This document shows positions 4,316 to 15,676 of a DNA stretch of 39,640 nucleotides, in pieces. A program made the position numbers and the translations under genes. Numbering within the stretch: the stretch's first letter is position 1; every line of letters begins with the position of its first letter. The notes below the pieces were generated by a model. That model had not been told where the DNA came from and did not search any database. It saw only the letters and a program-made list of their open reading frames with translations. Source of the stretch: a virus (lineage: Duplodnaviria; Heunggongvirae; Uroviricota; Caudoviricetes); the IMG/VR virus record IMGVR_UViG_2563366929_000005. One strand, 5' to 3'.

Positions 4316-4674
4316 TTCTTATTCTCCGGTGCTTTCGGCATTACTGCCCAGTGAGTGATATTGACGTTTTCAAGGTCCCCGACCTGAAATGTCCACTGCC
4401 ATTCTCCGGTTTCTTTTTGTCCCCAGGTGTACCAGAGAGAACGCCAGCCAATTAGCCAGCCTTCTCCGTTAGCATCAAATAACAGAACACTTTCATTTGC
4501 TGGCGGCAGTTCAGCTGACACTGGTATTATTTTGTTTTCCAGTGCCGCACATTTAGCTTCAAGCGCATCGAATTTACGTACCAGGTACTCAGCATTTGTT
4601 TCGTTCACTTTCAGATCTCGCGGTACACATTTCCCGCGAAGAAACCCTTCCATTTCGAAAACATTCATGCGCAT
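4312..4674 (-). CDS. Hypothetical early protein with DUF551-like C-terminus (120 aa)
   Basis: ATG at 4674 with GGAG 8 nt upstream on the minus strand; C-terminal ...ITHWAVMPKAPE resembles the DUF551 tail. Confidence 0.6.
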   Translation of the reverse strand: MRMNVFEMEGFLRGKCVPRDLKVNETNAEYLVRKFDALEAKCAALENKIIPVSAELPPANESVLLFDANGEGWLIGWRSLWYTWGQKETGEWQWTFQVGDLENVNITHWAVMPKAPENKK

Positions 4675-5328: not shown

Positions 5329-6153
5329 TCAGGCGGTGAAAGTACCAATAAAGGTTTCTACTTTGCTGTCTTTGAATTTCTCAACAAGCAGATCACGAAA
5401 TTCGTTAGCCATATCTTCCTGCACCGCTTCCAGCTGAATAATGCGCAGAACCAGTACAGGACGATCGCCAGTGATAATGCTGAGGCGTAATTTAAACGGA
5501 CGTTCTTTCAGACCTTCAAACGGAACGCATTTAAATTCAAATGCCACTGGCATAATGTCTTTGGTCTTCGCTTCGACAGATTCCATCAGGGAGCGTTTGC
5601 CGCTGAAGTCATTATCTTCAAAATCAGCGGTCTGGTTTGCTTCAATCGTGATTTTACGGATTGCCGCAGCCGCTTTTGTTGCCTGAATGGCGTCACCATT
5701 AGCATCAAAGCCCACAAGGTAGTCGGCCCAGTCTTCAATCCATTCTGCCAGTGATTTCTGGGAGTTACGCTCGCCGTTAACAGACAACAGGGCAGAGAAC
5801 GGTGCTGTCTTTTTCAGTTTGAGAGTGGCGGTGTTATCTGCGTGACCTGGTTCATCAATAGTACCCAGGTTAAGCACACTGACGGCACGCATATTATCAG
5901 CATCGATAAAGCAGCGGGTGCCTTCATCTGCAAGATCTTTAGAATAACGGGTAAAGTCATCGATGCTGGCAGTGGAAAGCGCACCACGGAAACGGAAGCG
6001 ATTTAAATTAAATTTTTCCAGATCATGAATGCGGAAATTCTCAGGCAATGCCACAGCATCGGCACCAATCTTACTGATAATTTCATTAACACCCTGAGCA
6101 GAAATAAGGGCATGGATTTGATTAATTGCGGTTGCGTCTAAGTTCTGAGACAT
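5329..6153 (-). CDS. DUF2303-like (YfdQ-like) phage protein, 274 aa
   Basis: 274-aa ORF, ATG at 6153 with AGGA upstream; resembles the DUF2303 family found next to HD-domain genes in CPS-53-type prophages (from memory). Confidence 0.65.
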
Positions 6154-6218
6154 AATAAGTCCTCACTATATTAAGATATTCAGTGATGAGATAAATAATC
6201 AGTTAATTAAGAACGATA

Positions 6219-6581
6219 TTAATGACCTGCTGCGCGGAGTTTTCCGTCAGGTTCACCGGCAAGAGTCAGTAATTGTCCCTGGTCTTCCTGCAGAATAGTC
6301 AGGCGACCACCGCGATTGACATACATCGGCGTTTCGGTGGTGTCTTCTTCAGAAATTTTCCCGCGGTTAGTCGGGCGAACATATGAGAGTTTGTGTTTGA
6401 TTTTCACACGGTTCTCATCAAACGGTTCGATTTCCAGGTTGAGCGAGACCTTACCTTTGGTTTTCGTGTTCATCACACCGGAAGCGACTTCACTGAGAAC
6501 TGCGCCGATTTTGGTTTCAAATACGCCGCCGTCCAGCTCCCCGATAAATGCCTGCACATCAGTACTGCGTTCGCTAGCCAT
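6219..6581 (-). CDS. Hypothetical early protein, 120 aa (first gene of leftward operon)
   Basis: The long ORF runs to 6767, but AGGAGCAGCAAA-ATG at 6581 gives a strong SD plus start; the upstream extension is Cys/His/Arg-rich and looks non-coding. Confidence 0.6.
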   Translation of the reverse strand: MASERSTDVQAFIGELDGGVFETKIGAVLSEVASGVMNTKTKGKVSLNLEIEPFDENRVKIKHKLSYVRPTNRGKISEEDTTETPMYVNRGGRLTILQEDQGQLLTLAGEPDGKLRAAGH

Positions 6582-6992
6582 TTTGCTGCTCCTCATCATA
6601 TCGACCCTGCAAGGTCGGTTGGTTTCTCCACAAAACAGAGAAGAACACCTGCGGTGGCAGCCGCCCGGATGGATTGGGTTATGAGCCCGTCGTCCGGTGA
6701 TGCTCTTCTCTGTTTTGTAAAAAGAGCGGTACCAGCCGGAAGCAAGTGTACAAACTGGTACCGCCAAAGCAGTGGCTGTTGTGGTGACCGGTGCTGATCT
6801 CCGGCTTGCGGTTATTTCAGACTCTCACGGGCGTTTAATTGCCCCGCCGAACAGCTCTTTTCCGCAATAGCTGCAATGTCTTTCGCGCATCAGCCTGCGC
6901 ATTCACCACAACGCTAAGGATTCTCTCTGGTTGAAAATACTTAGCTGTTATGTGCCTGCTTTTAGCCACATCAGGCGAGGTGGACCTGGTTA

Positions 6993-8000: not shown

Positions 8001-8627
8001 CTAGAGTTCGTATTGAACTCCTTTGACTACACCAATGATGAGGCAATTACCATTGATCGGGATGTTGGGGTACCGGGGATTTAATGGCACTAAAAACTTT
8101 TGAGGGCCATCGATAACTAATTTTTTTACTGTGGCTTCGTTTGTTCCATCAAGTCTAGCGATGACTATTTTTCCATGCCGGGGTTCTGCATCAGGATCTA
8201 CAATCACTGTTGCGCCTTCTGGTATTGTTGGGAGGCCGTTAGGGTTAGTCATGGAGTCGCCTTTAACCTCCAATGCAAATGAGTTATCACCAATCTTTAA
8301 TGATGTATCTACCCACTTGTCTACTTCACTAAACACTTCTGCTGTCCTGCACTCAGTAAACTGCCCAGCCTGAACCCACGAGATTACAGGAACTCTGCGC
8401 ATGTTTGTGACGAGTTTGCCTTCAAACTCCGCACCATAAAGAATGTAATCTATTGACGTATTGAAGAACTTCGCTAATTTTGAAAGTGCTTCCCCACCAG
8501 GGACATTGATGTCTTTCTCCCAGTACCCCACAGCAACGTCACTTACTCCACAAAATTTACCCAATTCTTTCTGGGACGTTCTGGTAACTCTTCTCAGAGC
8601 TTTTATACGCTGACCAACCGTTTCCAT
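8001..8627 (-). CDS. cI: CI-type prophage repressor (N-terminal HTH, C-terminal S24/LexA-like peptidase), 208 aa
   Basis: N-terminal HTH (QKELGKFCGVSDVAVGYWE); C-terminal GDSM (catalytic Ser) and downstream Lys as in the LexA/CI autocleavage domain; divergent from a Cro-like gene. Confidence 0.9.
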   Translation of the reverse strand: METVGQRIKALRRVTRTSQKELGKFCGVSDVAVGYWEKDINVPGGEALSKLAKFFNTSIDYILYGAEFEGKLVTNMRRVPVISWVQAGQFTECRTAEVFSEVDKWVDTSLKIGDNSFALEVKGDSMTNPNGLPTIPEGATVIVDPDAEPRHGKIVIARLDGTNEATVKKLVIDGPQKFLVPLNPRYPNIPINGNCLIIGVVKGVQYEL

Positions 8628-8724
8628 AGGAGCACCATTTCTTTAATTACTAAGTAATCTTAGTTTTTATTGACCTAAGATAGATTGATAATTAACATCT
8701 AATAAAACTTAGTTTGGAGGGCAT
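8628..8724. promoter_or_regulatory. Divergent cI/cro operator-promoter region (OR-like)
   Basis: Perfect 16-bp palindrome ACTAAG-TAAT-CTTAGT at 8649-8664; further half-site-like AACTTAGTT at 8706-8714 (the same 9-mer recurs at 7926-7934); TTGACC at 8670-8675. Confidence 0.5.
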
Positions 8725-8925
8725 ATGACGACTGACGATATCGAAAGCTACTTCGGCAGCATTGAGAAAGTTGCTGCTTTTTTCGGCATAACAACTGAAG
8801 CCGTTTATCAGTGGCGAAACCGTCCTGGCCAGTTAATTCCAAAAGGACGTGCAGCAGAGGCTGCATATAGAACTTGCGGACGGTTGCCATTTAAACCTGA
8901 GCTTTATGAAAAATCTAATGGATAA
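8725..8925 (+). CDS. cro: Cro-like HTH regulator (66 aa)
   Basis: Small ORF divergent from cI, GGAGGG SD; HTH-like segment VAAFFGITTEAVYQWRN. Confidence 0.7.
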   Translation: MTTDDIESYFGSIEKVAAFFGITTEAVYQWRNRPGQLIPKGRAAEAAYRTCGRLPFKPELYEKSNG

Positions 8926-9547
8926 ATCGATTTACAGAAACCACAGATATGAGGGCTTAAACGTGGGTAAAGAACCTGAATGGAAAGTTGATAAGCAACC
9001 AGCATGGCTGGTGGCAGCAATACGAAGAACGATTGCTGATTTACCTCATGGCTATGAGGAAGCAGCAGAAATTCTTGGTTTGTATAAATCTGATGATATC
9101 ACCCCAGCAAAAGATCAATTGCATAACAGACTGCGTAGCGGTGGGGATCAAATTTTTCCACTTGAGTGGGCCATGGTTTTACAGGATGCCAGTGGTACCA
9201 GGCATGTAACGGATGCAATAGCCCGTCGTAGTAATGGGGTGTTTGTGCCGCTGGTGGTCATTGATGACATTGACAATGGTGACATTAATCAGCGGCTGAT
9301 GGAGTCAATAGAATGGATTGGCAAGCATTCCCAGTACTTACGCAAGGCAACTGCTGATGGAGTTATTGACCAAGCTGAGCGTGAGCAAATCGAAGAGAAC
9401 AGCTACCAAGTAATGGCGAAGTGGCAGGAGCATTTAACACTGTTATTTCGTGTTTTTTGTGCGCCGGAAAAGAGTAACGCCCGCGAGTGTGCAGCTCCGG
9501 GCGTCGTGGCGTCGATTGCTTCTGGTTGTGGAGAAACTAACGCATGA
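8906..9547 (+). CDS. Early regulatory protein, putative CII-like (about 210 aa; start at ATG 8906 or 8918)
   Basis: The ORF track start (8849) overlaps cro; internal ATGs at 8906/8918 fit better. Function inferred from position only. Confidence 0.45.
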
Positions 9548-9882
9548 ACAGTTTAACAACACACTACCGTCGCTCGCAACTGATTGCGCTTCCTGTGCCG
9601 GGTGGAAAAGCGAAGGTGGAGTATTGCTATGCAGTGAATGTACCAGGTGACAGGGAAATTGTAACCCACAGCTTTGCAGAGTGGGCTGTGGGTGATTTCA
9701 ACCGGCAGAAGGAGACAGTCCTTTGCGACAAGTTAACCGCTGGTTCAAAGATCACTACGGAGTGCCCGTCAGAGTCATTCGTTGGGAGCCGGAAACACAA
9801 CGGGTTATCTACCTCCGTGAAGGCTATGAACATGAATGCTTCAGTCCGCTCGAACAGTTTCGTCGTAAATTCAGGGAAATAG
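9544..9882 (+). CDS. Hypothetical protein (112 aa); possible frameshift relative to the overlapping 9723-9935 frame
   Basis: ATGA start/stop overlap with the upstream gene; ends 10 nt before the SD of the next gene. Confidence 0.4.
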
Positions 9883-9891
9883 AGGTCGGTC

Positions 9892-10884
9892 ATGAGCCTG
9901 TTAATGACATCCCAGCCCATTGTGATAAATCGTGATCTTGCATGCCGTATTGGTCTGAATGAGGCAATTGTGTTGCAGCAGCTTCATTACTGGCTGAATG
10001 AAACGAATTCAGGCACTGAGCATGGCGGAATTCGCTGGGTTTATAACACGACAGAACAGTGGCTGGAGCAGTTTCCGTTCTGGTCAGAGTCCACTCTGAA
10101 ACGCACATTTGCAAGCCTGAAATCACTTGGGGTTTTGCGTCGCGAGCAACTCAATAAATCGAAGCGTGACATGACCAACTTCTACACGATCAACTATGAA
10201 AGTGAGCTTTTAGAAGAGGTCAAAGTGAACGAATCCATCAGGTCAAAATGCACTTCTCCATCGGGTCAAAGTGACCTGATGGATGGGCGCAAAATGACAC
10301 GATCCATTGGTTCAAAACGACACGCTGTCATCGGGTCAAAATGGCCCAATGATCTTACAGAGAATACAACAGAGATTACTACAGAGAATAAAACCTCTTC
10401 TCGTCCGGACGCTTCGCAACCGGACACGCAAACGGCTGAACAGGATTTTTTAACTCGCCATCCTGATGCGGTTGTATTCAGCCCTAAAAAGCGCCAGTGG
10501 GGGACGCAGGATGATTTGACCTGCGCACAGTGGCTCTGGAAAAAAATCATCGCCCTGTACGAGCATGCCGCCGAATGTGACGGCGAGGTGGTTCGTCCCA
10601 AAGAACCGAACTGGACAGCATGGGCAAACGAAATTCGCCTGATGTGTGTGCAGGATGGTCGTACTCATAAACAAATCTGCGAGATGTACAGCCGCGTCAG
10701 TCGCGATCCGTTCTGGTGCCGTAACGTGCTCAGCCCGTCGAAGCTGCGGGAAAAATGGGATGAGCTTTCCCTGCGCTTATCGCCGTCCGTCAGCACGTAC
10801 ACCGAAAAACGCGAAGACCCGTACTTCAAAGCCAGTTACGACAACGTGGACTACAGCCAGATCCCGGCAGGATTCAGGGGGTGA
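9892..10884 (+). CDS. Replication initiator (O-like) with internal origin iterons, 330 aa
   Basis: GAGGT SD; N-terminal HTH-like DLACRIGLNEAIVLQQLHYW; four direct repeats inside the coding sequence, as in the lambda O/ori arrangement. Confidence 0.65.
   Translation: MSLLMTSQPIVINRDLACRIGLNEAIVLQQLHYWLNETNSGTEHGGIRWVYNTTEQWLEQFPFWSESTLKRTFASLKSLGVLRREQLNKSKRDMTNFYTINYESELLEEVKVNESIRSKCTSPSGQSDLMDGRKMTRSIGSKRHAVIGSKWPNDLTENTTEITTENKTSSRPDASQPDTQTAEQDFLTRHPDAVVFSPKKRQWGTQDDLTCAQWLWKKIIALYEHAAECDGEVVRPKEPNWTAWANEIRLMCVQDGRTHKQICEMYSRVSRDPFWCRNVLSPSKLREKWDELSLRLSPSVSTYTEKREDPYFKASYDNVDYSQIPAGFRG
10234..10343. repeat. Replication origin iterons (4 copies of about 17 bp, consensus TCCATCGGGTCAAAATG) followed by an AT-rich tract
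   Basis: Copies at 10234-10250, 10257-10273, 10303-10319 and 10327-10343; inverted partial copy GTGACCTGATGGA at 10271-10283; AT-rich ACAGAGA repeats at 10350-10390. Confidence 0.6.
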
Positions 10885-10886
10885 TC

Positions 10887-11375
10887 ATGAGTCTTTTGAA
10901 TGACGTTCAGAAATTCATTGAAGCCCATCCGGGGTGTACTTCCGGAGACATTGCGGATGCTTTTGCAGGTTACTCACGACAGCGCGTTCTGCAGTCAGCA
11001 AGCAAGTTACGTCAGAGTGGGCGTGTGGCTCACCGTTGTGAAGGGGATACACGCAGACATTTCCCGCGGCTGACTGAGATACCGCAGGAGCCGGAACCGC
11101 AACCAGTTCGTGAATCCAGACCTGTGCGCAATTTCTATGTCGGCACTAACGATCCCCGGGTGATTTTGTGCCTGACCCGCCAGGCGGAAGAACTGGAGTC
11201 CAGGGGCTTATACCGTCGTGCTGCAACGGTGTGGATGGCGGCATTCCGTGAAAGCCACTCCCAGCAAGAGCGAAACAATTTTCTTGCGCGTCGTGAGCGG
11301 TGTTTACGGAAAAGCAGCAAGCGCGCTGTATCGGGTGAAGAGTGGTATCTGTCAGGGAATTACGTGGGGGCTTAA
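10887..11375 (+). CDS. Hypothetical protein, possibly a PerC/ANR-like regulator (163 aa)
   Basis: ATG 10887 preceded by AGGGGGTGA; the segment GLYRRAATVWMAAF resembles the PerC-family motif from memory (weak). Confidence 0.45.
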   Translation: MSLLNDVQKFIEAHPGCTSGDIADAFAGYSRQRVLQSASKLRQSGRVAHRCEGDTRRHFPRLTEIPQEPEPQPVRESRPVRNFYVGTNDPRVILCLTRQAEELESRGLYRRAATVWMAAFRESHSQQERNNFLARRERCLRKSSKRAVSGEEWYLSGNYVGA

Positions 11376-11701
11376 TGACGACGTTAACTCAATGCCAGCA
11401 GCAGGTGCTGGATATGCTGATTTCTTACCAGAAAGAACGTGGCTTCCCGCCAACCAATCAGGAGGTGGCTACCATGCTGGGATACCGTTCAGTGAATGCA
11501 GCGGTGGAGCATCTTCGCGCACTGGAGAAAAAAGGCGTCATCACGATAAAGCGTGGCGTGGCCCGGGGCATCACGCTTCATACCGCGGTGAAGGACGACG
11601 ACAGCGAGGTGGCCGGGATTATCCGCGCACTGCTTGCTGGTGAGGAAAACGCCAGGCTGCGTGCAGCCCACTGGTTACATGAGAGGGGGCTGAAAGTATG
11701 A
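11375..11701 (+). CDS. LexA N-terminal DNA-binding-domain homolog lacking the peptidase domain (108 aa)
   Basis: LTQCQQQVLDMLISYQKERGFPPTNQEVATMLGYRSVNAAVEHLRALEKKGVI aligns by eye with the LexA winged-HTH domain; no Ser-Lys peptidase region follows. TAATG stop/start overlap. Confidence 0.62.
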   Translation: MTTLTQCQQQVLDMLISYQKERGFPPTNQEVATMLGYRSVNAAVEHLRALEKKGVITIKRGVARGITLHTAVKDDDSEVAGIIRALLAGEENARLRAAHWLHERGLKV

Positions 11702-12087
11702 AGCTGATTCTGCCTTTTCCACCCAGCGTGAACACCTACTGGCGACACCCCAACAAAGGGGCATTTGCTGGTAAGAGCCTGATAAGCGCGGCGGGGCGAA
11801 AATTCCAGAGTGCGGCGTGCACAGCAATAGTTGAGCAGTTACGTCGTCTGCCGAAACCAACGTCGGCACCTGCTTCAGTGGAGATCGTGTTGTTTCCTCC
11901 GGATAACCGGATCCGCGATCTGGACAACTATAACAAGGCGCTGTTTGACGCCCTGACCCACGCGGGTGTGTGGGAAGACGACAGCCAGGTGAAAAGAATG
12001 CTGGTGGAGTGGGGACCGGTTATCCCGGAAGGGAAGGTCGAGATCACTATCAGTAAGTACGAGAAAACTGCGGGTGCAGCCGCCTGA
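11698..12087 (+). CDS. rusA: RusA-family Holliday junction resolvase (129 aa)
   Basis: LPFPPSVNTYWRH...RDLDNYNKALFDALT matches the RusA signature, including the catalytic Asp cluster. Confidence 0.88.
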   Translation: MKLILPFPPSVNTYWRHPNKGAFAGKSLISAAGRKFQSAACTAIVEQLRRLPKPTSAPASVEIVLFPPDNRIRDLDNYNKALFDALTHAGVWEDDSQVKRMLVEWGPVIPEGKVEITISKYEKTAGAAA

Positions 12088-12106
12088 TTAAGAGGAGAAA
12101 CGAAGT

Positions 12107-12904
12107 ATGAATAATCTGATGGTCATTGATGGTATTGAAGTTCGTCGTGATGCTTATGGTCGTTACAGCCTGAACGATCTGCACAGGGCTGCCGGTTCTC
12201 TGGATAAGCATAAGCCTGCATTCTGGCTCCGCAATGAGCAAACTGAACGTTTAATAAGCGAGTTGCAGATTTGCAACTCGGTCAATATAGAGCCAGTTAA
12301 CGTTATTCGTGGCGGAAATAACCAGGGGACGTATGTCTGCAAAGAACTGGTGTATGCCTATGCAATGTGGATCAGTCCGTCATTCCATCTGAAGGTGATC
12401 CGTACTTTCGATACGGTAACCAGCGCACCGGAAAAATTATCCGGGCAGGCTGCTGACAAGATGCAGGCTGGTGTGATTCTGCTGGACTTTATGCGTCGGG
12501 AGTTAAACCTGTCTAACTCATCTGTGCTTGGTGCCTGTCAGAAACTCCAGGAGGCTGTTGGCTTACCGAATCTGGCACCGCGCTATGCCATTGATGCTCC
12601 TGCCGATGCACCCGATGGCTCAAGTCGCCCCACGCTGTCGCTAAGTGCACTGCTGAAACAGTATGGTATCCGCCTGACGGCTAATCAGGCATATCACCAG
12701 ATGGTGAAGCTGGGGATCGTCGAGCAGCGCGAACGATACAGCCGTACCGCGATTAACAACATCAAAAAATTCTGGTCGCTGACGGCGAAAGGCTGCATGT
12801 TCGGCAAGAACATCACCAGTCCTGCAAATCCGCGCGAGACGCAGCCGCACTTCTTCGAATCCCGATTCCCTGAGCTGTTAAAGCTGCTCGATACCGTTCA
12901 TTGA
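12107..12904 (+). CDS. KilA-N domain protein (antirepressor-like), 265 aa
   Basis: AGGAG SD; N-terminal region (IDGIEVRRDAYGRYSLNDLHRAAG...KHKPAFWL) typical of the KilA-N domain. Confidence 0.72.
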   Translation: MNNLMVIDGIEVRRDAYGRYSLNDLHRAAGSLDKHKPAFWLRNEQTERLISELQICNSVNIEPVNVIRGGNNQGTYVCKELVYAYAMWISPSFHLKVIRTFDTVTSAPEKLSGQAADKMQAGVILLDFMRRELNLSNSSVLGACQKLQEAVGLPNLAPRYAIDAPADAPDGSSRPTLSLSALLKQYGIRLTANQAYHQMVKLGIVEQRERYSRTAINNIKKFWSLTAKGCMFGKNITSPANPRETQPHFFESRFPELLKLLDTVH

Positions 12905-12905
12905 G

Positions 12906-13901
12906 GTGACCGTGAGAGCACTACTGACCCCTGAAATTGCCCCGCGTATGGGGATCGTATTGTTCAGACCAGGTTCAGAGCTGATGCCCCTGTTTATGCA
13001 GGGGCGTGTCCTGCTGGAGCCTGAGCCGGAACGTTATTCATCTTTCGCCAGTGGTGCCGTTCCGGCGGCATCACAACCGCTGGCGGATGATCCTGCCGTT
13101 CGGGCCGTGTTCCGCAATGAGGCAGTGATCCGTCGTGCTGGTGGCGTGGAATGTCTTGAAAGCTGGTTACTTCGTGAAAAAGGCTGCCAGTGGCCTCATT
13201 CCGACTGGCACAGCGAGAACATGACCACAATGCGGCACGCTCCGGGCGCAATCCGTCTGTGCTGGCACTGCGATAACCAGTTGCGCGATCAGTTCACGGA
13301 ACGGCTGGAATCAATGGCAACGGATAACTGTGCCCGCTGGGTGTTATCTGTTGTGCGCCGTGATCTCGGTTTTGATGACAGTCACGTTGTGACAATGCCG
13401 GAACTGTGCTGGTGGCTGGTTCGTAATGACCTGGCGGATGCCTTACCGGAAAGTGCAGCCCGTAAGGCACTGAGATTACCGAAGCCTGTTGTGCCGTCTG
13501 TCACCCGGGAGAGTGACCTTGTTCCTTCGGTTCCTGCCACCAGCATTATCCAGGATAAAGCGAAAAAGGTGCTGGCGCTGAAAGTGGATCCGGAGTCGCC
13601 GGAGTCTTTTATGTTACGCCCAAAACGTCGCCGCTGGGTTAATGAAAAGTACACGCGCTGGGTTAAGACACAGCCGTGTGCATGTTGTGGAAAGCCAGCT
13701 GATGATCCCCACCACCTGATAGGCCACGGTCAGGGGGGAATGGGTACAAAAGCGCATGACCTCTTTGTGTTGCCTTTGTGCAGAAAGCATCACGACGAGC
13801 TGCATGCGGATACCGTGGCATTTGAAGAGAAGTATGGCTCCCAGCTGGAGCTGATATTTCGTTTTATCGATCGTGCGCTGGCAATTGGCGTGCTGGCCTG
13901 A
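12906..13901 (+). CDS. DUF968-like protein with C-terminal HNH-like Cys/His cluster (331 aa)
   Basis: C-terminus CACCGKPADDPHHLIGHG...LCRKHHDELH. Confidence 0.65.
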   Translation: MTVRALLTPEIAPRMGIVLFRPGSELMPLFMQGRVLLEPEPERYSSFASGAVPAASQPLADDPAVRAVFRNEAVIRRAGGVECLESWLLREKGCQWPHSDWHSENMTTMRHAPGAIRLCWHCDNQLRDQFTERLESMATDNCARWVLSVVRRDLGFDDSHVVTMPELCWWLVRNDLADALPESAARKALRLPKPVVPSVTRESDLVPSVPATSIIQDKAKKVLALKVDPESPESFMLRPKRRRWVNEKYTRWVKTQPCACCGKPADDPHHLIGHGQGGMGTKAHDLFVLPLCRKHHDELHADTVAFEEKYGSQLELIFRFIDRALAIGVLA

Positions 13902-13918
13902 TTTTGTGGAGAAAGTTG

Positions 13919-14299
13919 ATGCGTGATATTCAGATGGTTCTTGAACGCTGGGGGGCATGGGCTGCAAGTGGTAACACCGGGGTGGACTATTCTCCGATCG
14001 CTGCCGGATTCAAAGGACTTTTACCATCTGCCACTAAACCACGTCCGGCCTGCTGCGATGATGACGGACTTATCATTGAAAACTGTCTTGCTCGTCTGAA
14101 GCAGAAAAAACCTGAGGAGTATTCGCTTCTCATTGCTCATTATTTGTTGCGAATATCAAAAAGACAGATAGCCAGGACGAGAAAGAAAAGCGAAAAAGCA
14201 ATACGAATTGAGATGCAGATAGCCGAAGGGTTTATTGACGGATGTTTGTCTGTGCTGGGGGTAAGACTGGAGATGGACGACTGGCTGCTAAAAAAGTAA
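13919..14299 (+). CDS. Q: Late-gene antiterminator Q-like protein (126 aa from ATG 13919)
   Basis: GGAGA SD before ATG 13919; MRDIQMVLERWGAWAA...CCDDD resembles a Q-antiterminator family (from memory); followed by an intrinsic terminator. Confidence 0.65.
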   Translation: MRDIQMVLERWGAWAASGNTGVDYSPIAAGFKGLLPSATKPRPACCDDDGLIIENCLARLKQKKPEEYSLLIAHYLLRISKRQIARTRKKSEKAIRIEMQIAEGFIDGCLSVLGVRLEMDDWLLKK

Positions 14300-14367
14300 A
14301 AAATGATTAGTGCGGTCCGCAAAAAGTATGTCAGTATGTTAAGAGTGGTTACTTCGCCACACAGCTT

Positions 14368-14392
14368 AAACCCGCCGCGAGCGGGTTTTTTT
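14368..14392 (+). terminator. Intrinsic terminator downstream of Q (tR'-like)
   Basis: CCCGC-CGCGA-GCGGG followed by TTTTTTT. Confidence 0.6.
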
Positions 14393-14450
14393 ATGGCTGA
14401 ACGTTAAATGCGCTGGTGGTTGTGAATGCCGACTGCGGCGGTATTTTGGC

Positions 14451-14729
14451 GTGACGGCGCAGGTGCCGTATACCGATGTCTGGACGCATAAACCGGTGCA
14501 GTTCTATCCCGGGAAACATCCGTGCGAAAAACCGGCAGAAATGCTGCAGCAGATAATCAGCGCTAGCAGTCGTCCGGGTGACCTGATTGCAGATTTTTTC
14601 ATGGGGTCGGGTTCGACAGTGAAAGCGGCACTGGCGCTCGGGCGTCGTGCAATTGGCGTTGAGCTGGAGACTGAACGTTTTGAGCAGACGGTTCGGGAAG
14701 TACAGGATTTAGTCAGCCAGAACGGATGA
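14451..14729 (+). pseudogene. C-terminal remnant of an N6/N4 DNA methyltransferase (92 aa, GTG-initiated ORF)
   Basis: HPCEKPAEMLQQIISASSRPGDLIADFFMGSGST is the C-terminal SAM-binding region of PF01555-type methylases; no DPPY catalytic block upstream. Confidence 0.55.
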
Positions 14730-14769
14730 TATTGAAGAATTAATTACGCGTCGTTATTATGCGGCTCCC

Positions 14770-14845
14770 GGCCCTTTAGCTCAGTGGTGAGAGCGAGCGA
14801 CTCATAATCGCCAGGTCGCTGGTTCAAATCCAGCAAGGGCCACCA
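14770..14845 (+). tRNA. tRNA with CAU anticodon (Ile2/Met type)
   Basis: 7-bp acceptor GGCCCTT/AAGGGCC, T-arm GCTGG-TTCAAAT-CCAGC, anticodon loop CTCATAA, encoded CCA end. Confidence 0.8.
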
Positions 14846-14852
14846 TCACATA

Positions 14853-14929
14853 CCGCCATTAGCTCATCAGGATAGAGCACCAGCCTTCGAAGCTGGTTGC
14901 GCGGGGTTCGAGTCCTCGATGGCGGTCCA
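14853..14929 (+). tRNA. tRNA-Arg (anticodon UCG)
   Basis: Acceptor CCGCCAT/ATGGCGG, anticodon arm CCAGC-CTTCGAA-GCTGG, T-loop TTCGAGT, CCA end; boundaries +/- 2 nt. Confidence 0.72.
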
Positions 14930-14942
14930 TTATCTGTACCCT

Positions 14943-15019
14943 GCGTTGTTAGCTCAACCGGACAGAGCAATTGCCTTCTAAGCAATCGGTCACTGGTTCG
15001 AATCCAGTACAACGCGCCA
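14943..15019 (+). tRNA. tRNA-Arg (anticodon UCU)
   Basis: Acceptor GCGTTGT/ACAACGC, anticodon arm ATTGC-CTTCTAA-GCAAT, T-arm ACTGG-TTCGAAT-CCAGT, CCA end. Confidence 0.8.
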
Positions 15020-15032
15020 GACTTATTTTTCC

Positions 15033-15059
15033 CGGCTCGCTTTTGCGGGCCTTTTTTTT
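15033..15059 (+). terminator. Hairpin plus T-tract after the tRNA cluster
   Basis: GGCTCGC-TTTT-GCGGGCC (one G-U pair) followed by TTTTTTTT. Confidence 0.5.
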
Positions 15060-15258
15060 AAATGTCTCACAATTCAGACGGTTGACAGTTGTCTGTTTTG
15101 CGGGGAGTTTGTTAAAAGAAACTGGCATGGTGAATCCCCCTGTGCGGATGGGCAATCAGCGAGTAGGTATATGGGATAATCGCGGATTCAGGTGCTGGTA
15201 CTGAATTCACCGGGAGGCACCCGGCACCATGCAGTTGACTGAAACCATGTATACTCTC

Positions 15259-15290
15259 AGGCCCCACGCACATGTGTTGGGGCCTTTTTA
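15259..15290 (+). terminator. Strong hairpin plus T-tract in the non-coding region upstream of the lysis cassette
   Basis: AGGCCCCA-cgcacatgtgt-TGGGGCCT then TTTTT; a second hairpin GCCCG...CGGGC at 15304-15323 is preceded by A8. Confidence 0.4.
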
Positions 15291-15460
15291 CATGCAAAAA
15301 AAAGCCCGCATATGGATACGGGCGGCAAGGAACAAAAAACGTGAAGTGATCTATTCAGCCAGTGGATAATACCCTGACGTTACCATATTGCGCAATCGCG
15401 CATTCTTTCTTTTTCGCTCCCCTTATAACTACGCCATCCGTTCGCTGCGGAGGTGAGGCT

Positions 15461-15676
15461 ATGAAATCCATGGACAAAATTTCAACGGGCATTGCCTACG
15501 GCACCTCCGCAGGCAGTGCTGGCTACTGGTTTTTACAGTGGCTTGATCAGGTCAGTCCGTCACAGTGGGCTGCGATTGGTGTACTGGGGAGTCTGGTTCT
15601 GGGCTTCCTGACTTATCTGACAAATCTGTACTTCAAAATCAGAGAAGACAAGCGTAAGGCTGCACGGGGAGAGTAA
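15461..15676 (+). CDS. S: Pinholin (phage 21 S21-type), 71 aa with dual-start motif
   Basis: [28 protein letters not shown]... matches the S21 pinholin from memory, including the MKSM dual start; GGAGGTGAGG SD. Confidence 0.85.

Follow-up and report, generated by a model that had tools for sequence, protein, structure and literature searches.

A LexA-type DNA-binding protein without an autoprotease domain in the early-right region of a lambdoid Escherichia coli prophage

We analyzed a stretch of 39,640 nucleotides (IMG/VR record IMGVR_UViG_2563366929_000005; "the window" throughout) that is a lambdoid prophage of Escherichia coli. On its plus strand, at positions 11375..11701 (ATG at 11375, TGA at 11699-11701), an open reading frame (ORF) encodes a stand-alone LexA-type DNA-binding protein of 108 amino acids. 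This LexA-like gene is a genuine, conserved gene of the early-right operon (the "nin region"), and its product, judged by profile matches, is a full member of the family phrog_362. Our best explanation, which we favor tentatively and would stop short of calling probable, is that the protein regulates by binding DNA at specific sequences, does not respond to RecA, and is expressed from the early-right operon once the prophage has been induced. Its target would be a palindrome that is related to the SOS box but shifted from it, and its C-terminal tail may provide a dimer or partner contact. The sequence and its domain annotation were already known: a gene with 100% DNA identity is annotated in RefSeq as WP_000210176.1, "LexA family transcriptional regulator". 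On present evidence the gene is an annotated but uncharacterized family member and no surprise.

A LexA DNA-binding domain followed by a helical hairpin

Residues 1-65 of the LexA-like protein align with positions 1-65 of the 65 in the Pfam profile PF01726, LexA_DNA_bind (E = 2.9e-19; 69 bits against a cutoff of 23.7). A sequence search of the Protein Data Bank (PDB) matched the DNA-binding domain of E. coli LexA (1lea) over residues 2-69 with about 50% identity (E = 8e-16), and in Foldseek an AlphaFold2 model superposes on the LexA-DNA complex 3jso_B with a root-mean-square deviation of 1.1 Å over 68 columns at 50% identity. The original prediction, made from the letters of the window alone, had placed an ORF for 108 amino acids at 11375-11701 and had read it as the LexA winged helix-turn-helix without the S24 peptidase half. 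Its coordinates are exact, and the full-profile match, the PDB match and the superposition bear out the assignment; the profile search returned LexA_DNA_bind rather than a different helix-turn-helix family. A Pfam scan found no S24 peptidase match either in the LexA-like ORF or in the next ORF, RusA. Since there is no autoprotease domain, and hence no catalytic domain with which to cut itself, the protein is incapable of RecA-stimulated self-cleavage.

LexA proper has a C-terminal S24 domain with a Ser119/Lys156 dyad, whereas the LexA-like protein stops at residue 108. The NCBIfam lexA equivalog TIGR00498 aligns only over positions 1-91 of 203 and scores 67.4 bits, below its cutoff of 110.95. 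Together with the loss of Glu44, discussed below, the missing S24 domain and the sub-threshold score put the protein outside LexA proper as far as sequence can tell. The match to phrog_362, in contrast, runs from end to end (residues 1-108 on profile positions 1-106 of 106, E = 7e-58). The name of that family, "transcriptional repressor", is an annotation label. Phage orthologues are 94-97% identical to the window protein; orf42 of SfV, annotated as "unknown", is one of them, and those of SfII and mEp460 are labelled "LexA DNA binding domain protein".

The winged helix-turn-helix occupies residues 1-69 (11375..11581, plus strand), as delimited by Pfam, the modelled secondary structure and Foldseek. 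In the AlphaFold2 model, a monomer computed from 22 family sequences with a mean pLDDT (predicted local distance difference test) of 81, it consists of helices 6-22, 28-35 and 40-52 and a beta wing of residues 56-58 and 66-68. Alignment to LexA places the recognition helix at residues 39-52 (SVNAAVEHLRALEK; 11489..11530, plus strand). A low-confidence linker (residues 70-74) leads to a C-terminal two-helix hairpin at residues 75-103 (11597..11683, plus strand), which is delimited by the model and the family alignment and whose helices, 75-87 and 93-103, are modelled confidently (pLDDT about 86-88). This hairpin was not part of the original prediction. According to the model and the alignment it is a family-specific element that replaces the hinge and the S24 autoprotease of LexA.

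No counterpart of the tail was found in the PDB, where all structure matches end at about residue 70. Exhaustive and profile searches recovered full-length relatives with 38-65% identity from Citrobacter, Salmonella, Cronobacter, Atlantibacter, Kosakonia, Enterobacter, Klebsiella and Raoultella prophages, and the hairpin is kept in other genera down to about 40% identity. The window tail aligns with those of Cronobacter, Klebsiella, Enterobacter, Salmonella and Atlantibacter members; the relatives share the pattern ...(I/L)(I/L)(R/Q)x(L/M)(L/V)... A-R-x-x-A-x-x-(W/F)-L, and A97 and L101 are invariant in a 10-sequence cross-genus alignment. We saw the tail motif L86-L87 ... A97 ... L101 in the enterobacterial prophage family and, beyond it, in just a few proteobacterial sequences. 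The hairpin may be a dimerization or partner-binding module.

One could also take the tail for a vestigial cleavage site of LexA, or for a pseudo-substrate. Within the E. coli clade its first helix (VGIIRALLAGEE) is similar to the hinge and cleavage segment of LexA, VGRVAAGEP, and "LLAGEE" (A88-G89) aligns with "VAAGEP", which holds the Ala84-Gly85 site. As a family feature we rejected this idea, since the segment is modelled as helical and conservation of the Ala-Gly pair does not extend beyond the E. coli clade: of 80 distant members, 23 have Ala at position 88 and 39 have Gly at position 89. The resemblance is therefore a vestige at most.

DNA-contact residues and SOS boxes in related prophages

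The helix-III residues with which E. coli LexA contacts DNA are Ser39, Asn41, Ala42, Glu44 and Glu45 (PMC3091678, PMC13416735). Positions 39-46 of the window protein read S-V-N-A-A-V-E-H. The alignment to the contact residues, proposed as a check by the original prediction, therefore gives a divided answer: Ser39, Asn41, Ala42 and Glu45 are kept, which is four of the five contacts, while Glu44 is replaced by Val. Outside the contacts Pro40 is also Val, and the window protein shares His46, Arg64 and Gly65 with E. coli LexA.

What these replacements mean can be judged from a comparison of 151 tail-bearing family members with 80 genuine full-length beta- and gammaproteobacterial LexAs, a control set that came from a contig scan with the family alignment, which drew host lexA genes (from Halomonas and others). 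Ser39, Asn41, Ala42, Arg64 and Gly65 are near-invariant among the family members. Residue 44, however, is Glu in 78 of the 80 genuine LexAs (with one Gln and one Asp) and never Glu in the family, where we counted 70 Val, 30 Ala, 17 Thr, 13 Leu, 11 Asn and 8 Phe. Residue 45 is Glu, Asp or Leu in the family. Residue 40 is free among the genuine LexAs (Pro, Ala, Val or Thr). A CTG-N10-CAG box lies at most 250 bp upstream of lexA for 49 of the 80, some of them Val40 LexAs, so Val40 should be harmless for SOS-box recognition. The loss of Glu44, on the other hand, reads from these alignments as a systematic, family-defining departure from LexA.

The two residues at positions 44 and 45 also differ between subfamilies. 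They are VE in the E. coli subfamily, AE in mEp390 and Enterobacter, VD in Salmonella, TD in Cronobacter, ND in Atlantibacter and LL in Klebsiella. The LexAs of Enterobacteriaceae recognize one common SOS box. Because the hosts of all these subfamilies are Enterobacteriaceae and presumably share that box, the variation argues against general SOS-box mimicry. It would be expected of phage regulators that diversify their operators, and not of mimics of a single fixed host operator. A residue that is near-invariant in LexAs, never Glu in the family and variable between subfamilies behaves like a specificity determinant.

Some relatives of the gene do lie near SOS boxes. In four Klebsiella loci (three from K. 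pneumoniae/variicola, L002-L004, with the box at 5385-5404, and one from K. oxytoca, L093, with the box at 4387) a box of 25-27 bits overlaps the -10 element just upstream of dinI, which is followed by a small conserved ORF, a LexA-like gene of 130 amino acids, an ORF of 67 amino acids, DUF968, and Q or a Q-like gene. In Enterobacter (L092, 4560-4579) a 19.9-bit box abuts the promoter-like TTGCAA-17-AATAAT about 130 bp upstream of the same small ORF and of a LexA-like gene of 135 amino acids. The LexA-like gene of Klebsiella and Enterobacter is thus predicted to lie in a LexA-controlled unit, which would tie the family loosely to the SOS response. The recognition helix of the SOS-boxed Klebsiella subfamily, SSSNAVLLHL, has lost both Glu44 and Glu45.

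A second association concerns a methylase gene that lies between Q and the tRNA and lysis genes in the sister phages SfV, cdtI, Ayreon and Stx2a_1447. An SOS-box-like palindrome, TACTGTAAAAATAAACAGTG, scoring 22-23.5 bits, covers its codons 3-9 (SfV, L087 34170-34189; cdtI, L088 44083; Ayreon, L089 41489; Stx2a_1447, L090 15934). The methylase 5' region with this box occurs in 28 phage records from phage groups that carry the LexA-like gene, and all records listed are carriers. Linkage explains this co-occurrence equally well, as the two genes are about 4 kb apart in closely related phages of shared ancestry. Comparison with the sister phages shows that the window keeps only a 3' fragment of the methylase (14433..14729), so its box is gone.

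Strong boxes were also seen elsewhere in the related prophages. Stx2a_1447 has a perfect 20-bp SOS box, TACTGTTTTTATATACAGTA (26.5 bits; L090 6408-6427), within the annotated cI (5944-6591, minus strand), roughly where the linker between the helix-turn-helix and S24 domains is encoded. In cdtI, tandem strong boxes at L088 26720 and 26748 lie between divergent small genes downstream of cdtC. Of two further strong boxes, at Atlantibacter L095 829 and at L092 9164, one is beside a non-S24 repressor-like gene and one after a lysozyme gene.

Possible functions of the protein

The regulator that we tentatively favor would work as follows. The operon of PerC-like, LexA-like, RusA, KilA-N, DUF968 and Q genes would be read rightward from the immunity region with coupled translation, as the arrangement of the genes suggests. 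Going by gene order, the LexA-like protein would appear once CI has been inactivated, or on infection; after SOS induction this would be while host LexA is being destroyed. Residue patterns point to sequence-specific DNA binding, probably as a dimer that the tail holds together or that assembles on the DNA. The target would be a palindrome akin to the SOS box yet distinct from it, and the tail would supply the dimerization or partner contact that the S24 domain gives LexA. Our best guess is that the protein represses or modulates a few phage or host promoters during the SOS or induction period, and that RecA does not affect it.

Known proteins resemble the LexA-like protein in part. It shares with the N-terminal domain of E. 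coli LexA (1lea, 3jso) the same winged helix-turn-helix and the identical residues listed above, and with LexA(1-84), the autocleavage fragment, the lack of the S24 dimerization and protease domain. Unlike E. coli LexA it has Val44 and a hairpin in place of hinge, cleavage site and S24 domain, and its gene, which belongs to a phage and lies within an early lytic operon, lacks an SOS box in the window. Stand-alone LexA DNA-binding proteins of 65-152 amino acids in BFVD, from uncultured Caudovirales, Mycobacterium phage Wildcat and Tectiviridae, have the protease-free use of the domain in common with it; the top matches among them are mostly confined to the DNA-binding domain (roughly residues 1-70), unlike the tailed family.

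The only characterized phage-encoded truncated LexA homologue that we found in the literature searched is gp6 of the Bacillus tectivirus GIL01, a protein of 66 amino acids that activates the late promoter P3 (PMC6182141). It binds its own palindrome, which overlaps the -35 element of P3, and not the LexA box (PMC6182141). Like the window protein, gp6 is a phage-encoded LexA DNA-binding domain without a protease. BLASTP detected no similarity between the two, but hhalign identifies gp6 as a remote homologue (probability 96%, E = 2.3e-9 over 63 columns). The differences are that gp6 has no tail, comes from another host phylum and virus family, and has a recognition helix in which Lys38 aligns with Asn41 of the window protein. 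By analogy, gp6 shows that truncated LexA homologues can evolve an operator and a regulatory sign of their own.

Several observations weigh against the regulator with a shifted operator. No candidate operator was found. Our SOS position-specific scoring matrix, which is a lead and not a reference (about 18 E. coli boxes went into it, and these training boxes score 13-26 bits), reached at best 11.4 bits in the window, below the shuffled mean maximum of 12.9. Window counts of CTGT-N0..16-ACAG, ACAG-Nx-CTGT, TGT-N8-ACA and CTG-N10-CAG are at chance level, an inverted-repeat scan of 8600-14500 returned no striking repeat and nothing operator-like near the LexA-like gene, and the gp6-type motif CACANNTGTG has 0 matches in the window. 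Dimerization through the tail is an inference, and the timing of expression is likewise inferred from gene order. The loss of the acidic residue 44 might raise affinity instead of shifting specificity, in which case the E. coli subfamily could bind SOS boxes. Finally, in the literature searched we found neither an experimental paper on the LexA-like family nor a functional study of its enterobacterial members.

The window has just one exact CTGT-N8-ACAG, within the portal gene, with 0.42 such sites expected by chance, and two intergenic CTG-N10-CAG sites (1283 and 2826) score below threshold, so the search for SOS boxes in the prophage that the original prediction had proposed yielded none above chance. 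A promoter and terminator scan of 8500-15600 gave as many promoter-like matches as expected from shuffled sequence and none of note near the LexA-like gene. The original prediction had also named an antirepressor promoter as a possible target, which finds no support in the window: the 19-bp gap between rusA and the KilA-N gene holds no SOS-box or operator-like site, and the sole promoter-like match there, a weak 9-of-12 consensus at 12088-12115 that runs into the KilA-N start, is at chance level.

Alternatively, the protein could be a true SOS-box mimic, which binds CTGT-N8-ACAG, cannot be cleaved, and re-represses the host SOS regulon and LexA-controlled phage genes after LexA has been destroyed; dinI-like genes, antirepressors of co-resident prophages and the SOS-boxed methylase of the sister phages would be candidate targets. 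We consider this unlikely, albeit with a chance large enough to take seriously, and it is for the E. coli subfamily that it could hold. The seven residues identical to E. coli LexA (Ser39, Asn41, Ala42, Glu45, His46, Arg64 and Gly65) speak for it and Val40 is compatible with genuine SOS-box-binding LexAs. Related prophages with the gene also have boxes of 22-27 bits, at the methylase start (in the 28 phage records given above) and upstream of the Klebsiella dinI-hyp-lexA-like genes. In Klebsiella the predicted transcription unit includes DinI, a modulator of RecA and the SOS response. All of this has to be set against the presence of Glu44 in 0 of 151 family members as opposed to 78 of 80 real LexAs, the different residues 44/45 in different subfamilies (with Leu-Leu, and thus no Glu45, in Klebsiella), the lack of an SOS box above chance in the window and the confounding of the methylase-box association by linkage and ancestry. 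Moreover, an isolated N-terminal fragment of LexA binds operators much more weakly than the dimer. Of the original claim that the protein could occupy SOS boxes without being cleavable by RecA, the LexA fold, the missing autoprotease and four of five contacts hold up, and the lost Glu44, the varying residues 44/45 and the empty window stand against the occupancy. A more specific form of the idea is that the protein replaces LexA as a stand-in on which RecA has no effect. It would be synthesized only once the prophage has been induced (from PR in the E. coli phages, and from an SOS-box promoter with DinI in Klebsiella and Enterobacter) and would reoccupy SOS-type operators when LexA has been cleaved; this seems rather unlikely to us.

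A protein like gp6 would instead be an activator, with a site near the promoter of Q, the late region or a moron, where it recruits RNA polymerase and uses its tail as contact surface. The precedent is that gp6, a remote homologue of the family, is an activator (PMC6182141), and in the loci examined the LexA-like gene is always shortly upstream of Q. The recognition helix, however, is unlike that of gp6, whose binding-important Lys38 aligns with Asn41. In addition, gp6 is tailless, and neither CACANNTGTG nor an GaCACAnnTGTGaC operator overlapping a late-promoter -35 was found in the window. Late expression in lambdoid phages is already explained by Q antitermination, and we found no conserved palindrome beside the putative pR' region at 14300-14400, which makes an activator distinctly unlikely. 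It is improbable, too, that the protein is a DNA-binding accessory and no transcription factor, marking or protecting sites in replication or recombination together with the replication protein, Dam, RusA and DUF968/HNH. Its tightest conserved neighbors are indeed RusA and DUF968, with replication and methylase genes upstream, and a PHROG search weakly matched O-like replication initiators (phrog_678, E = 0.0087). But this match is marginal, the LexA winged helix-turn-helix is known only from transcription factors, and nin regions are mosaics of unrelated genes in which adjacency is weak evidence. A functionless, decaying remnant of a captured lexA might be suspected from VGIIRALLAGEE, given its likeness to the LexA cleavage segment, and from the NCBIfam lexA model, which aligns out to position 91. 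This possibility is effectively excluded by the conservation data: the ratio of nonsynonymous to synonymous substitutions (dN/dS) is 0.06-0.31, seven genera retain full-length ORFs with a conserved tail even where identity has dropped to about 40%, isolated viable phages (SfV, SfII, SfIV, mEp460, cdtI, Ayreon and Stx2 phages) carry the gene, and an identity of only about 50% to E. coli LexA does not fit a recent capture.

Which of these explanations is correct matters because the gene is very common, including in Shiga-toxin, cytolethal-distending-toxin and Shigella serotype-converting phages. If the stand-in were true, it would shut down the host SOS response, the antirepressors that LexA controls in rival prophages and those genes of the phage itself that have SOS boxes, and about 40% of E. 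coli genomes would contain a phage-encoded SOS off-switch. If the protein binds SOS-type operators and is immune to RecA, lysogens would have an altered SOS shut-off, and mutagenesis, persistence, induction of toxin phages and competition between prophages could change. If it has its own operator, it would be an unrecognized regulator in the late-early stage of a large lambdoid group.

Genomic setting and distribution

A 1.4-kb block around the LexA-like gene recurs with 100% identity in several complete E. coli chromosomes, and in E. coli MS8345 the identical prophage is integrated beside yjjG. The order of genes in that prophage is a CI-type repressor (minus strand), Cro, the CII-like YmfL, DUF4222, a replication protein, the PerC-family YfdN, the LexA-like gene, RusA, KilA-N, DUF968 and Q, followed by the methylase fragment, three tRNAs and the lysis genes. 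The CI-type repressor, annotated "LexA family protein" in MS8345, corresponds to 8001..8627 on the minus strand of the window. By analogy to the S24-bearing CI of the related locus L005, it may be the RecA-sensitive switch of the operon that holds the LexA-like gene.

Immediately upstream of the LexA-like gene lies the PerC-family gene (yfdN-like, 164 amino acids; 10881..11375, plus strand; PF06069, E = 9e-10, and MS8345 annotation), whose stop codon overlaps the LexA-like start codon (TAATG). Downstream, the LexA-like stop codon overlaps the ATG of rusA (ATGA), which encodes a Holliday-junction resolvase (11698..12087, plus strand; PF05866, E = 7e-15). Such overlaps are the usual signature of translationally coupled genes and indicate that the three belong to one operon. 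The next gene has a KilA-N domain (12107..12904, plus strand; PF04383, E = 1.6e-26) and fills a variable slot between rusA and DUF968; the original prediction had placed a KilA-N gene two genes downstream of the LexA-like gene, and that is where it is. The DUF968/HNH-like gene (12906..13901, plus strand), identified by Pfam and the relatives' loci, is the steadiest downstream neighbor of the LexA-like gene across genera. The antiterminator Q (13904..14299, plus strand; PF06530, E = 1.6e-52; RefSeq start 13919) ends the early-right operon.

Of 5426 complete E. coli genomes, 2233 have the LexA-like gene, and a single genome can hold as many as four copies. It is also carried by 61 phage records, which include the isolated phages SfV, SfII, SfIV, mEp460, cdtI and Ayreon and converting phages for Stx2a, Stx2c and Stx2k. 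The dN/dS values given above were obtained against four phage orthologues (SfV, cdtI, Ayreon and Stx2a_1447) and indicate purifying selection. Among these orthologues only two differences fall in the winged helix-turn-helix (K20Q in cdtI and V55I in SfV), none in the recognition helix, and the remainder in the tail.

Gene order is conserved as well. Relatives have replication genes, the PerC-like gene, optional methylase or other inserts, the LexA-like gene, RusA, an optional antirepressor-type gene, DUF968 and Q, an order that holds in Cronobacter, Salmonella, Atlantibacter, Enterobacter, Klebsiella (in loci without RusA) and coliphage mEp390, and that is also conserved in the coliphages SfV, cdtI, Ayreon and Stx2a_1447. 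Counted by genus, the series of replication, PerC, LexA-like, RusA, DUF968 and Q genes returns in five of the six others examined, with RusA absent from Klebsiella. The position typical of phrog_362, upstream of RusA, DUF968 and Q in the early-right or nin operon, is also the position of the gene in the window. Judged by these gene orders, the LexA-like protein regularly belongs to the early-right operon, in its late part, within one large lambdoid group.

The neighborhood varies in its details. The slot between rusA and DUF968 is filled by KilA-N in the window (12107..12904), by ORF6N+ANT or pRha+ANT in other loci (L006 6724-7584, L094 5810-6703, L095 5729-6430), and is empty in mEp390 and Cronobacter. 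A PerC-like gene precedes the LexA-like gene, directly or with a methylase between them, in Cronobacter, Salmonella, Atlantibacter and K. oxytoca loci. Accessory inserts adjoin the LexA-like gene in some relatives (L092 2863-4232; L093 1312-4187; L002 1-1542); their types are a bacterial RNase A-like toxin with a CdiI-like immunity gene, a type II restriction-modification pair and an AAA_15/DUF4435 pair. A DinI homologue was sought in the window and rejected, the tblastn match being at chance level (E = 0.018).

Some minor observations remain. Tandem proteins with two LexA DNA-binding domains and no protease occur in the representative library (P0129, P0130, P0146, P0150-P0153 and others) and are another way to arrive at a "dimer". 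Between the CII-like and the DUF4222/replication genes of the window, at 9664-9693, lies a perfect 9-bp inverted repeat, ACCCACAGC-N12-GCTGTGGGT, with the orientation ACAG...CTGT, that is, an SOS box reversed; a role as origin or operator is conceivable. At about 14770-15019 of the window (L001 15971-16220), beyond Q and the methylase fragment, are genes for tRNA-Ile, tRNA-Arg and tRNA-Arg, arranged as they are upstream of stx in Stx2a_1447; in the window no toxin genes follow them.

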